This document shows, piece after piece, positions 2,324 through 19,756 of a DNA stretch of 64,000 nucleotides (the first letter of the stretch is position 1; every line of letters begins with the position of its first letter). The notes beneath the pieces were generated by a model. The model saw only the letters and a list, made by a program, of their open reading frames with translations. It made no database searches and was not told the DNA's origin. The translations under genes were made by a program, and so were the position numbers. Origin of the DNA: Escherichia coli (lineage in GTDB: Bacteria; Pseudomonadota; Gammaproteobacteria; Enterobacterales; Enterobacteriaceae); NCBI RefSeq assembly GCF_041248615.1, contig NZ_CP158426.1. One strand, given 5' to 3'.

Positions 2324-3562
2324 ATGGCTGACACTCGCCCTGAACGTCGCTTTACGCGCATTGATCGTCTCCCGCCCTACGTTTTTAATATTACCGCTGA
2401 ACTGAAAATGGCTGCGCGTCGGCGCGGCGAAGATATTATCGATTTCAGTATGGGTAACCCGGACGGTGCGACTCCGCCGCACATCGTCGAAAAATTATGT
2501 ACTGTGGCCCAGCGCCCGGACACGCATGGTTACTCCACGTCACGCGGCATTCCGCGGCTACGTCGCGCCATTTCCCGCTGGTATCAGGATCGCTACGACG
2601 TTGAAATCGACCCGGAATCAGAAGCCATCGTCACTATTGGTTCGAAAGAGGGACTGGCGCATCTGATGCTGGCGACGCTGGATCATGGTGACACGGTGCT
2701 GGTGCCTAATCCAAGCTACCCCATTCATATTTATGGCGCGGTGATTGCAGGGGCGCAGGTACGCTCAGTGCCGCTGGTGGAAGGTGTCGATTTCTTCAAC
2801 GAACTGGAACGCGCCATTCGCGAAAGTTATCCGAAACCGAAGATGATGATCCTCGGCTTCCCGTCGAACCCAACCGCGCAATGCGTGGAACTGGAATTCT
2901 TTGAGAAGGTTGTGGCGCTGGCAAAACGCTACGATGTGCTGGTGGTCCATGACCTGGCCTATGCCGATATCGTCTACGATGGCTGGAAAGCGCCGTCAAT
3001 CATGCAGGTGCCGGGCGCACGCGACGTGGCGGTCGAGTTCTTTACCCTGTCGAAAAGTTACAACATGGCGGGCTGGCGTATCGGCTTTATGGTTGGCAAC
3101 AAAACGCTGGTCAGCGCGTTGGCACGTATTAAAAGCTATCACGATTACGGCACCTTTACGCCGTTGCAGGTGGCAGCGATTGCGGCGCTGGAGGGCGATC
3201 AACAGTGCGTGCGCGACATTGCTGAACAGTACAAACGCCGCCGTGATGTACTGGTAAAAGGGCTGCATGAAGCGGGCTGGATGGTCGAAATGCCGAAGGC
3301 TTCGATGTATGTCTGGGCGAAAATCCCGGAACCGTATGCTGCCATGGGCTCGCTGGAATTTGCCAAGAAGCTGCTGAACGAAGCGAAGGTCTGTGTCTCT
3401 CCGGGGATTGGCTTTGGCGACTACGGCGACACGCATGTTCGCTTTGCACTGATTGAAAACCGCGACCGTATTCGTCAGGCGATTCGTGGAATTAAAGCGA
3501 TGTTCCGTGCCGACAGTTTACTACCCGCCAGCAGCAAACATATTCACGAAAACGCGGAATAA
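2324..3562 (+). CDS. alaC: glutamate-pyruvate aminotransferase AlaC (412 aa)
   Basis: 412-aa [24 protein letters not shown] with class I aminotransferase fold; GAGG Shine-Dalgarno upstream of the ATG. Confidence 0.95.
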
Positions 3563-5644: not shown

Positions 5645-5877
5645 CTATCGCACAGGATGGATAAGATAATTCGCCTTTGTCGGAAAAGGGGGCGGAATTT
5701 CTTCTGTGAGGTTTAATGGTGGCGCATCTTCTCTCATTTTTAACAAAATCGCCTGTGATGGCTGAAATTTTGTAGAGTGAGTTGTCGTCATCGCTGACGT
5801 TTTTTCCGTCTCTTTATAGCTCGTCTCACTTCCACCACCAGAAATGGAAAATGCAAAAACATTGCATGCCATAATAG
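5645..5877 (-). pseudogene. ypdI: ypdI lipoprotein gene remnant, 5' end and promoter removed at the IS1 boundary
   Basis: Minus-strand ORF encodes ...MACNVFAFSISGGGSE... with the candidate lipobox Cys at residue 3 of the remaining frame, so a signal peptide is missing; frame runs directly into the IS1 left end at 5878. Confidence 0.6.
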
Positions 5878-5932
5878 GGTGATGCTGCCAACTTACTGAT
5901 TTAGTGTATGATGGTGTTTTTGAGGTGCTCCA

Positions 5933-6208
5933 GTGGCTTCTGTTTCTATCAGCTGTCCCTCCTGTTCAGCTACTGACGGGGTGGTGCGTAACGGCAAAAG
6001 CACCGCCGGACATCAGCGCTATCTCTGCTCTCACTGCCGTAAAACATGGCAACTGCAGTTCACTTACACCGCTTCTCAACCCGGTACGCACCAGAAAATC
6101 ATTGATATGGCCATGAATGGCGTTGGATGCCGGGCAACCGCCCGCATTATGGGCGTTGGCCTCAACACGATTTTCCGCCATTTAAAAAACTCAGGCCGCA
6201 GTCGGTAA
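5933..6208 (+). CDS. insA: IS1 InsA (91 aa, transposition repressor / N-terminal part of the transposase)
   Basis: [43 protein letters not shown] with zinc-finger cysteines. Confidence 0.97.
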
Positions 6209-6630
6209 CCTCGCGCATACAGCCGGGCAGTGACGTCATCGTCTGCGCGGAAATGGACGAACAGTGGGGATACGTCGGGGCTAAATCGCGCCAGCGCTGG
6301 CTGTTTTACGCGTATGACAGGCTCCGGAAGACGGTTGTTGCGCACGTATTCGGTGAACGCACTATGGCGACGCTGGGGCGTCTTATGAGCCTGCTGTCAC
6401 CCTTTGACGTGGTGATATGGATGACGGATGGCTGGCCGCTGTATGAATCCCGCCTGAAGGGAAAGCTGCACGTAATCAGCAAGCGATATACGCAGCGAAT
6501 TGAGCGGCATAACCTGAATCTGAGGCAGCACCTGGCACGGCTGGGACGGAAGTCGCTGTCGTTCTCAAAATCGGTGGAGCTGCATGACAAAGTCATCGGG
6601 CATTATCTGAACATAAAACACTATCAATAA
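6127..6630 (+). CDS. insB: IS1 InsB frame (transposase C-terminal part; InsAB' is made by -1 frameshift)
   Basis: 167-aa ORF in the -1 frame overlapping the insA 3' end; slippery AAAAAAC at 6184-6190. Confidence 0.95.
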
Positions 6631-6645
6631 GTTGGAGTCATTACC

Positions 6646-7222
6646 TAATGCATTAAGTGCTGTGCGCGATGTATTGCGCGAGAACCAGGATATTTATTTA
6701 GTTAATGAAGGTGCAAATACCCTGGATAATGCACGAAATATTATTGATATGTATAAACCACGTCGCCGTCTGGATTGTGGTACCTGGGGTGTCATGGGCA
6801 TCGGTATGGGCTATGCCATCGGTGCTAGCGTGACCTCTGGTTCTCCGGTTGTCGCCATTGAAGGTGATAGTGCTTTTGGTTTCAGTGGGATGGAGATTGA
6901 AACGATTTGTCGATATAACCTGCCGGTGACGATCGTTATTTTTAATAATGGCGGCATTTACAGAGGAGACGGTGTTGATCTCAGTGGCGCTGGTGCACCA
7001 TCACCAACGGATCTGCTGCACCATGCAAGGTATGACAAATTAATGGATGCGTTTCGTGGCGTTGGCTATAACGTCACTACGACAGATGAACTTCGTCATG
7101 CTTTAACCACCGGTATTCAGTCGCGCAAACCGACCATTATTAATGTGGTCATCGACCCTGCAGCAGGAACTGAAAGTGGCCATATTACCAAACTTAACCC
7201 AAAACAAGTCGCTGGTAATTAA
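6646..7222 (+). pseudogene. oxc: oxalyl-CoA decarboxylase, 3' fragment only (C-terminal ~190 of ~564 aa)
   Basis: Frame right after the IS1 right end encodes [58 protein letters not shown]...GDSAFGFSG, a thiamine-diphosphate-binding C-terminal domain; no N-terminal or middle domain present. Confidence 0.85.
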
Positions 7223-7290: not shown

Positions 7291-8235
7291 ATGCTAACAT
7301 TTTTTATTGGCGATTTATTGCCTATTATCGTAATCATGCTGTTGGGTTATTTTAGCGGCAGACGAGAAACTTTTTCAGAAGATCAAGCCCGGGCATTTAA
7401 TAAACTGGTATTAAACTACGCTCTTCCTGCGGCCCTATTTGTTTCTATTACCCGGGCAAACAGGGAAATGATTTTTGCGGACACTCGCCTGACCCTTGTA
7501 TCACTTGTGGTTATTGTCGGATGTTTCTTTTTCTCCTGGTTTGGTTGCTACAAATTTTTTAAACGTACTCATGCAGAAGCAGCAGTATGTGCATTAATTG
7601 CAGGTTCACCTACCATCGGATTCCTGGGATTTGCAGTTCTCGATCCTATTTATGGTGATTCCGTATCAACAGGTTTAGTTGTAGCAATTATTTCTATTAT
7701 TGTTAACGCAATTACTATTCCTATTGGTCTGTATTTGCTGAATCCTTCCTCAGGAGCAGATGGTAAGAAGAATAGTAATCTGAGCGCATTAATTTCTGCG
7801 GCAAAGGAGCCAGTAGTATGGGCACCTGTTCTGGCAACGATCCTGGTGTTGGTTGGGGTAAAAATTCCGGCAGCATGGGACCCAACCTTTAATCTGATTG
7901 CGAAGGCTAACTCAGGGGTAGCGGTATTCGCTGCGGGGTTGACTCTGGCTGCACATAAATTCGAGTTCAGTGCTGAAATTGCTTATAACACCTTCCTGAA
8001 GCTGATTCTGATGCCACTGGCGCTGCTTCTCGTGGGTATGGCATGTCATTTGAACAGCGAACATTTGCAGATGATGGTACTGGCAGGCGCCTTACCGCCG
8101 GCATTCTCCGGAATCATTATTGCCAGCCGGTTTAATGTCTACACCCGCACTGGTACAGCATCATTGGCTGTGAGCGTACTGGGCTTTGTCGTCACGGCTC
8201 CTTTGTGGATTTATGTCAGTCGACTGGTTTCATAA
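7291..8235 (+). CDS. yfdV: AEC-family membrane transporter YfdV (314 aa)
   Basis: 314-aa polytopic membrane ORF downstream of the oxc fragment. Confidence 0.9.
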
Positions 8236-13945: not shown

Positions 13946-13963
13946 ATCCTACATGCGTAAGAA
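13946..13963. promoter_or_regulatory. EvgA box (18-bp inverted repeat) in the evgA-emrK divergent region
   Basis: ATCCTACATGCGTAAGAA, i.e. TTCTTACG-CA-TGTAGGAT on the other strand, fits the EvgA consensus TTCYTACA-N2-TGTARGAA as I recall it. Confidence 0.6.
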
Positions 13964-18292: not shown

Positions 18293-18520
18293 TTAGATGA
18301 TAAATGACAGCAGGAATGTGCCCGCCAGAGCGACGACTGAAGCGATAAATGTCGCGGTCGTATAGTATTTAAATGTTTCATTGAGCGTAGCGTCGCAATA
18401 TTGCTTCACCAGCCAGAAAAGCGAGTCCGTAACGATCGTGCAGCCAATCGCACCTGAACCGATAGCAATCGCAATAATTTCCGGGCTGATGTCGGGATAC
18501 AGCGGCAGCACAATGATCCA
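18293..18520 (-). pseudogene. dsdX: dsdX D-serine permease (GntP family), 3' fragment only (~72 codons)
   Basis: Minus-strand frame encodes a GntP-family C-terminal TM segment ...[59 protein letters not shown]; in-frame stop at 18524-18526, no upstream dsdX sequence, cscR begins ~230 bp further on. Confidence 0.8.
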
Positions 18521-18753
18521 TATTTATATTTTCTTCTCCAGATTGGCGATGCCAGTTGGCATGTTTTACCTACTTGCCTACATGGTTACTCGTTGGCGAG
18601 AACAGAGGCGGAATTGGGTACAATTGTCCGGGAATTATTGTTATTTTTTATTGTATTGCCGTGTCGGGTGATAGGGCGTCGAGAATATCGTTGGATCTCG
18701 CCAGTGACGTCTGTTTCTGCTACAGTGCCCGTTTTACGGCAAACGGCTTGGGT

Positions 18754-19749
18754 ATGGCTTCATTAAAGGATGTCGCACGCCTGGCGGGAGTGTCGATGAT
18801 GACAGTCTCCCGGGTGATGCATAATGCAGAATCTGTGCGTCCTGCAACGCGTGATCGCGTATTGCAGGCAATCCAGACCCTGAATTATGTTCCTGATCTT
18901 TCCGCCCGTAAGATGCGCGCTCAAGGACGTAAGCCGTCGACTCTCGCCGTGCTGGCGCAGGACACGGCCACCACTCCTTTCTCTGTTGATATTCTGCTTG
19001 CCATTGAGCAAACCGCCAGCGAGTTCGGCTGGAATAGTTTTTTAATCAATATTTTTTCTGAAGATGACGCTGCCCGCGCGGCACGTCAGCTGCTTGCCCA
19101 CCGTCCGGATGGCATTATCTATACAACAATGGGGCTGCGACATATCACGCTGCCTGAGTCTCTGTATGGTGAAAATATTGTATTGGCGAACTGTGTGGCG
19201 GATGACCCAGCGTTACCCAGTTATATCCCTGATGATTACACTGCACAATATGAATCAACACAGCATTTGCTCGCGGCGGGCTATCGTCAACCGTTATGCT
19301 TCTGGCTACCGGAAAGTGCGTTGGCAACAGGGTATCGTCGGCAGGGATTTGAGCAGGCCTGGCGTGATGCTGGACGAGATCTGGCTGAGGTGAAACAATT
19401 TCACATGGCAACAGGTGATGATCACTACACCGATCTCGCAAGTTTACTCAATGACCACTTCAAATCTGGCAAACCAGATTTTGATGTTCTGATATGTGGT
19501 AACGATCGCGCAGCCTTTGTCGCTTATCAGGTTCTCCTGGCGAAGGGGGTACGTATCCCGCAGGATGTCGCCGTAATGGGCTTTGATAATCTGGTTGGCG
19601 TCGGGCATCTGTTTTTACCGCCGCTGACCACAATTCAGCTTCCACATGACATTATCGGGCGGGAAGCTGCATTGCATATTATTGAAGGTCGTGAAGGGGG
19701 AAGAGTGACGCGGATCCCTTGCCCGCTGTTGATCCGTTGTTCCACCTGA
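18754..19749 (+). CDS. cscR: LacI-family sucrose operon repressor CscR (331 aa)
   Basis: Product begins MASLKDVARLAGVSMMTVSRVMHN (helix-turn-helix) at the internal ATG 18754, followed by a periplasmic-binding-protein-like sugar-binding domain; the longer upstream ORF start is rejected. Confidence 0.9.
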   Translation: MASLKDVARLAGVSMMTVSRVMHNAESVRPATRDRVLQAIQTLNYVPDLSARKMRAQGRKPSTLAVLAQDTATTPFSVDILLAIEQTASEFGWNSFLINIFSEDDAARAARQLLAHRPDGIIYTTMGLRHITLPESLYGENIVLANCVADDPALPSYIPDDYTAQYESTQHLLAAGYRQPLCFWLPESALATGYRRQGFEQAWRDAGRDLAEVKQFHMATGDDHYTDLASLLNDHFKSGKPDFDVLICGNDRAAFVAYQVLLAKGVRIPQDVAVMGFDNLVGVGHLFLPPLTTIQLPHDIIGREAALHIIEGREGGRVTRIPCPLLIRCST

Positions 19750-19756
19750 TATTATG

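Follow-up and report, generated by a model that had tools for sequence, protein, structure and literature searches.

A complete IS1 copy in the 64,000-nucleotide stretch of Escherichia coli DNA analysed here (the window) stands at the edge of a deletion that has truncated ypdI and oxc and removed the genes between them. The same element, with the same right-hand junction, is found in strain NRZ14408 at a locus that still carries the lost genes, and the two sequences differ by a single gap, one edge of which coincides with the first base of IS1. We regard intramolecular transposition of IS1 from its place in oxc into ypdI, resolved as a deletion, as the most likely origin of this structure, a reading that we hold with moderate confidence.

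A complete IS1 between two gene remnants

The junction region contains the following features, listed by window position.

5645-5877, minus strand: ypdI remnant, nt 44-276 of the 276-nt gene, from alignment to the ypdI genes of K-12 and NRZ14408
5869-5877: 9-mer CCATAATAG, adjoining IRL; distal endpoint of the deletion and presumed IS1 target site
5877/5878: deletion joint, at which NRZ14408 positions 1,605,878-1,609,548 (3,671 bp) are absent from the window
5878-6645, plus strand: complete IS1, 768 bp, from end-sequence, ORF and inverted-repeat analysis
5878-5900: IRL, on the insA side, 23-nt imperfect inverted repeat
5933-6208, plus strand: insA ORF, match to NF033558 with E = 2e-25
6127-6630, plus strand: insB' frame, match to NF033558 with E = 6e-42
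6184-6190: A6C -1 frameshift motif AAAAAAC, read from the sequence
6623-6645: IRR, 23-nt imperfect inverted repeat
6646-6654: 9-mer TAATGCATT, adjoining IRR
6646-7222, plus strand: 3' fragment of oxc, nt 1119-1695, codons 374-564 (191 aa), TPP-binding C-terminal domain
7291-8235, plus strand: yfdV, intact, identical to the gene annotated as intact in NRZ14408
8309-9454, plus strand: yfdE, intact, identical to the gene annotated as intact in NRZ14408

The sequence-only reading had placed a complete 768-bp IS1 at 5878-6645, and its ends, repeats and matches to NF033558, the IS1 family transposase model, bear this out. The two 23-nt inverted-repeat arms are 78% complementary, and the length of about 768 bp, the imperfect repeats of about 23 bp, the insA and insB' frames with their A6C frameshift and the DDE transposase together assign the element to the IS1 family. 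Within the 64-kb window, the only IS1 end sequences were those of this copy. It was 100% identical to the oxc copies of NRZ14408 and strain ES7, and the RefSeq label on the identical NRZ14408 copy reads 'IS1-like element IS1B family transposase, programmed frameshift'. A simple IS1 insertion is bounded at both ends by a target-site duplication (TSD) of 8-9 bp. None was found in the window: the 9-mers at the two IS1 ends, CCATAATAG and TAATGCATT, differ, as had been noted before, and the 9-bp repeat that would speak for a simple insertion is absent.

Alignment to K-12 MG1655 fixed both breakpoints to the base and showed the structure proposed from the letters to be exact. On the ypdI side, where loss of the signal-peptide end had been claimed, the first 43 nt are gone (14 codons plus 1 nt, encoding the start of the lipoprotein signal peptide); the residual ORF, 5645-5872, begins at Met17 and encodes 75 aa, compared with 91 aa for the full gene. 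On the oxc side, the C-terminal portion of about 190 residues that had been described corresponds to the 191 codons listed above and covers positions 382-571 of the 574 in the oxalyl-CoA decarboxylase profile. Relative to K-12 MG1655, 3,908 bp are missing (2,490,833-2,494,740), the final kept base of ypdI being 2,494,741 and the first kept base of oxc 2,490,832. The absent interval takes in the whole of yfdX and frc, together with the ypdI 5' end and oxc nt 1-1118, in agreement with the earlier proposal that yfdX, frc and roughly two-thirds of oxc were lost. Likewise, evgAS, emrKY, yfdV and yfdE had been called intact, and evgS, evgA, emrK and emrY, like yfdV and yfdE, proved base-identical to NRZ14408 genes annotated as intact.

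NRZ14408 carries the parent arrangement

Megablast searches against 5,426 complete E. coli genomes returned the whole window arrangement from none of them, and only NRZ14408 (NZ_LT599825.1) matched IS1 together with the right flank at 100%. In a base-by-base comparison, the window corresponded to NZ_LT599825.1 positions 1,600,001-1,667,671 with 0 mismatches over 64,000 bp, save for one 3,671-bp gap between identical flanks of 5,877 bp on the left and 58,123 bp on the right. The DNA lost across this gap consists of the first 43 nt of ypdI, the intergenic region that separates ypdI from yfdX, the whole of yfdX and frc, and nt 1-884 of oxc; it carries three matches to the EvgA box. The right edge of the gap is the first base of IS1, that is the IRL end, and microhomology at the joint is 0 bp. 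Because the breakpoint falls exactly on the IS1 terminus and microhomology is lacking, chance does not explain the joint. An IS-independent deletion, arising by replication slippage or illegitimate recombination, would have had to end on the first base of IRL by accident among thousands of possible positions, and at an IS1 end that had already lost adjoining DNA in NRZ14408; we consider such an origin extremely improbable.

In NRZ14408, IS1 lies within oxc and leaves nt 1-884 of that gene in place; ypdI, yfdX and frc are all intact. The junction of IRR with TAATGCATT in oxc is the same in the window and in NRZ14408 and was absent elsewhere among the 5,426 complete genomes. The NRZ14408 element is flanked by GGGCGGCAGA on the left and TAATGCATT on the right, with no target duplication; IRL sits directly against oxc nt 884, and 234 bp of the gene (nt 885-1118) have gone from this end. 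Since it has the same IS1 and right junction and still possesses ypdI, yfdX and frc, NRZ14408 evidently represents the base-exact parent arrangement, and it too evidently arose by a deletion at this IRL end. The parent arrangement, with the oxc'-IS1 read-through ORF specific to it, was present on 8 contigs from several NCBI assemblies and is not a one-off assembly product; in one of these, GCA_014863425.1, identity extends across 16.5 kb and takes in both junctions.

The comparison of parent and derivative supports the claim that the locus underwent an IS1-associated deletion and not a simple insertion. What did not hold was the idea of a single step from a K-12-like locus, as oxc of the parent was already disrupted by IS1 and 234 bp short. 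Judged from the two sequences, the IRR-oxc junction would have served as a fixed anchor, with DNA apparently lost from beside the IRL end at least twice. Alternatively, the window and NRZ14408 could each descend independently from an unseen simple insertion; the nested pattern at one end would be the same regardless.

Searches for the joint in other sequences

The left joint, of ypdI with IRL, occurred in 0 of the 5,426 complete E. coli genomes, where three near-matches were insertions offset by 1-6 bp, and it was not found in JGI metagenome contigs or GTDB species representatives. According to an exact-protein look-up, no genome assembly encodes the exact 75-aa YpdI remnant. Its sole match, metagenome contig k111_1779 of ENA ERZ27238078, ends in a Nextera/Tn5 mosaic-end adaptor (AGATGTGTATAAGAGACAG, positions 1-24) that joins ypdI at the same base as IS1 does in the window; we rejected this contig, which looks like an untrimmed-adaptor assembly artefact of coincident position and not like an IS1 joint. 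By exact look-up, the 196-aa form of the oxc 3' ORF is not on record; the 157-aa and 186-aa forms belong mostly to frameshifted oxc genes in unrelated assemblies, and also to the NRZ14408-type arrangement. BLAST near-matches had further raised the prospect of a pre-existing ypdI-IS1 joint in other strains, which would favour IS1-IS1 recombination, and this candidate was set aside when the base-level positions turned out to differ.

The joint may itself be an artefact, either of assembly collapse across IS1 repeats or of an edit of the public NRZ14408 sequence, and its absence from every public collection searched would fit such an origin. The window is otherwise base-identical to, and in exact coordinate phase with, NZ_LT599825.1, starting at 1,600,001 (25 x 64,000 + 1), so its source must be a derived, re-assembled or edited version of that chromosome. 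In addition, NZ_LT599825.1 matched a 2.1-kb query at nine places, mostly through the IS1 part, and several copies could mislead an assembler. For repeat collapse, however, the reads would have to contain a real ypdI-IRL junction, whereas the public assembly shows none and carries an intact ypdI. Moreover, the joint lies exactly at the IS1 terminus and its distal endpoint is AT-rich and within an insertion hot spot, properties that a random artefact would not show. We therefore judge an artefact distinctly unlikely.

IS1 joints at the same locus in other strains

For 12 other strains, the IS1 copies at the locus were placed on K-12 coordinates; they are grouped below by the type of joint.

Simple insertions in ypdI: J2, ST131-751 and JNEC-KY203, each with a 9-bp TSD
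Simple insertions in the ypdI-yfdX spacer: GN02270 (8-bp TSD) and GPEC548 (9-bp TSD)
Simple insertion in the yfdX-frc spacer: 184/2aE, with a 9-bp TSD
Simple insertions in oxc: ES7 and the second copy of 2273-PO3, each with a 9-bp TSD
TSD-less copies adjoining shorter deletions: NRZ14408 (234 bp) and MIN12 (1,823 bp)
TSD-less copies adjoining longer deletions: 2273-PO3 (2,916 bp), FORC_081 (3,199 bp) and the window (3,908 bp)
TSD-less copies adjoining deletions that reach dsdA: JNEC-KY203 and CUVET17-972

Throughout the 13 strains examined, each simple IS1 insertion carried a TSD of 8-9 bp (n = 8 in the other strains) and each TSD-less copy adjoined a deletion. The survey also yielded a second pair of parent and derivative, the left junction of MIN12 being the simple insertion junction of 184/2aE.

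The 5' end of ypdI and the spacer beside it hold 8 independent IS1 joints within 160 bp, in unrelated E. coli strains, and four joints lie within 8 bp of one another, at positions 3259, 3260 (that of the window), 3265 and 3266. In ST131-751, JNEC-KY203 and J2, independent insertions, all with 9-bp TSDs, lie 1, 5 and 6 bp from the CCATAATAG endpoint, respectively, and represent three IS1 sequence variants; the variants are 95-100% identical to the window copy (94-100% identity for the hot spot as a whole) and occur in both orientations. In the GC profile, the stretch around the endpoint has 32-34% GC and is part of the 400 bp with the highest AT content at the locus. In view of this AT-rich stretch and of the independent insertions 1-6 bp away, the distal endpoint in the window has the character of a target site and looks like a genuine IS1 target. 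The recurrent ypdI IS1 joints are a caution that look-alike IS junction regions across strains can be independent events.

A literature search on ypdI, yfdX and IS1 found nothing on a hot spot in ypdI. One could suppose that the ypdI 5' end and spacer form a strong hot spot, and that the recurrent erosion of the operon by IS1 in unrelated lineages (at least six with the window included) reflects selection against oxalate-linked acid tolerance, or its relaxation, in some niches, beyond target preference. We entertain this only tentatively and think it unlikely; if true, the window would have caught an ongoing series of nested deletions at one of its steps, in a clinical clone that is pan-resistant.

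In JNEC-KY203 and CUVET17-972, IS1-flanked deletions extend from the ypdI/yfdX region to dsdA, so that frc, oxc, yfdV, yfdE, evgSA and emrKY are gone and no EvgAS regulator is left. In 2273-PO3, two inverted IS1 copies bracket a 5'-truncated oxc, evgS is annotated as truncated and the locus is heavily eroded.

Origin of the deletion

Adjacent deletion by IS1 is a well-known type of rearrangement, and the nearest natural analogue of the window, 2273-PO3, is already public. Classical IS1-promoted adjacent deletions were reportedly described by Reif and Saedler (1975), and Turlan and Chandler (1995, EMBO J 14:5410) are said to have dealt with IS1 adjacent ('replicative') deletions. In such events, the IS remains intact in place, the deletion runs from its terminus to a target site without a TSD and a nested series forms at one end, all of which is also seen here; the window differs in that its event is deduced from comparative sequence alone.

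Adjacent deletions start precisely at the terminus of the element and have a transposition target as their far end, and they are typical of IS1 and Tn9 (PMC9330008). Chromosomal IS1 moves replicatively and normally makes TSDs of 8-9 bp (PMC12428005). In the window, the deletion begins at the exact IS terminus, the other junction is unchanged and the distal end resembles a target. IS1 would have inserted into oxc at an earlier time in the NRZ14408 lineage. From there it would have undergone intramolecular replicative transposition, in which IRL attacked the AT-rich target at the 5' end of ypdI, 3.7 kb away on the same chromosome. Resolution would have left one chromosomal IS1, with IRL joined to CCATAATAG, and the segment between (the start of ypdI, yfdX, frc and oxc nt 1-884) would have been lost, presumably as a non-replicating circle, while the IRR-oxc junction stayed put. 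Since 234 bp had already gone from beside IRL in the parent, the deletion in the window would stand later in a nested series of such events. That the transposase catalysed the event, that it happened in a single step and that the steps occurred in this order, we infer from the arrangement of the sequences.

The same product could arise by a two-step route, in which a second IS1 first inserted in direct orientation into the ypdI hot spot, duplicating CCATAATAG, and RecA-dependent recombination between the two IS1 copies then deleted 3.7 kb together with one IS1. Four independent joints within 8 bp mark the ypdI 5' end as an IS1 hot spot, strains with two IS1 copies at the locus exist (JNEC-KY203 and 2273-PO3), and IS-IS recombination is listed as a frequent cause of missing TSDs (PMC11708052). 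The outcome would be identical to that of an adjacent deletion, and sequence does not separate the routes. Two events would be needed, however, and the window and NRZ14408 have accumulated 0 substitutions over 64 kb. Moreover, no IS1 was present at the exact base in complete E. coli genomes, JGI metagenome contigs or GTDB species representatives, the 8 examined contigs with the parent arrangement carry a single IS1 copy, and an ancestral copy at the distal endpoint, which may have been transient, was not seen, ypdI being intact in NRZ14408 and the other parent-arrangement assemblies. The TSD-less loss of 234 bp at the same IS1 end of the parent is also hard to account for in this way and suggests deletions driven from the end of the element. 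We find the two-step route rather unlikely.

Returning to intramolecular transposition resolved as a deletion, several documented cases resemble the one proposed for the window. Strain 2273-PO3 (O15:H12, NZ_CP061749.1) carries an independent, TSD-less, IS1-flanked deletion from the ypdI 5' end to oxc, in which yfdX and frc are gone. Its deletion, 2,916 bp relative to K-12, differs in endpoints (16 bp further into ypdI and at oxc nt 111) and in its IS1 variant (95.7% identity), and a second, inverted IS1 with a 9-bp TSD sits at the 3' end of oxc. FORC_081, MIN12, JNEC-KY203 and CUVET17-972 likewise have a TSD-less IS1 adjoining deletions that remove frc, ranging from 1.8 kb to more than 14 kb, but with other endpoints, and the two largest deletions take evgAS and emrKY as well. 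In the LTEE, IS150 adjacent deletions proceeded from insertion through a small adjacent deletion to its extension, always without a TSD (PMC11708052). Their multistep, TSD-less course is like that of the window; unlike the window, they concern an IS3-family element and a laboratory setting.

Consequences for the EvgA-controlled genes

The EvgA-controlled yfdXWUVE operon is not intact in the window: it has no yfdX or frc, and of oxc it keeps just codons 374-564. The scan for EvgA boxes used the consensus reportedly given by Masuda and Church (2003). In NRZ14408, matches were located at 6063, 6101 and 7092 (window numbering, with 3,671 added beyond 5877), all within the deleted DNA. The lost boxes stood upstream of yfdX and frc, and the sole box left in the window is that of evgA-emrK, at 13946-13963. 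As a result, yfdV and yfdE are now cut off from the EvgA-dependent promoters of both units, yfdX and yfdWUVE. A search at IRR for outward promoter-like sites gave none. Given the loss of the EvgA boxes and the lack of such a site at IRR, yfdV and yfdE are probably promoter-less remnants whose expression would be low and EvgA-independent.

Relative to the parent, the new losses are yfdX, frc, a functional ypdI and the promoters with EvgA boxes, with evgAS and emrKY untouched. The oxalate-decarboxylation pathway, and with it oxalate-dependent acid tolerance, would already be inactive in the parent, because oxc is interrupted by IS1 there, and an oxalate acid-tolerance phenotype would hence not separate parent from derivative.

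Across the complete genomes, frc was present in 5,410 of 5,426, with at least 80% coverage in 5,404. Loss of frc is thus rare (about 0.4%) but has happened repeatedly, with IS1 flanking it in at least five of those genomes. The base-exact parent documents the stepwise removal, by one IS1 copy, of an operon that nearly all E. coli carry; beyond strain-level annotation, the finding has little import. In practical terms, an amplicon from yfdY to yfdV, 2.0 kb compared with 5.7 kb in NRZ14408, offers a simple lineage marker for NRZ14408 derivatives.

Other features of the window

Where K-12 has yfdF, between mlaA and fadL, the window encodes a 415-aa hypothetical protein (26390-27637, minus strand) with no NCBIfam match. 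Further, a csc sucrose-utilisation cluster (cscR, cscA, cscK and cscB; 18293-23900) stands in place of dsdC and the 5' part of dsdX, positions in this region being those of the NRZ14408 annotation shifted by -3,671. Of dsdX, a 219-bp remnant persists. The cluster adjoins a DUF4942 gene fragment of 60 aa and, at 24080-24154, tRNA-Arg(CCT); we take this to be the known variable argW-dsdA region.
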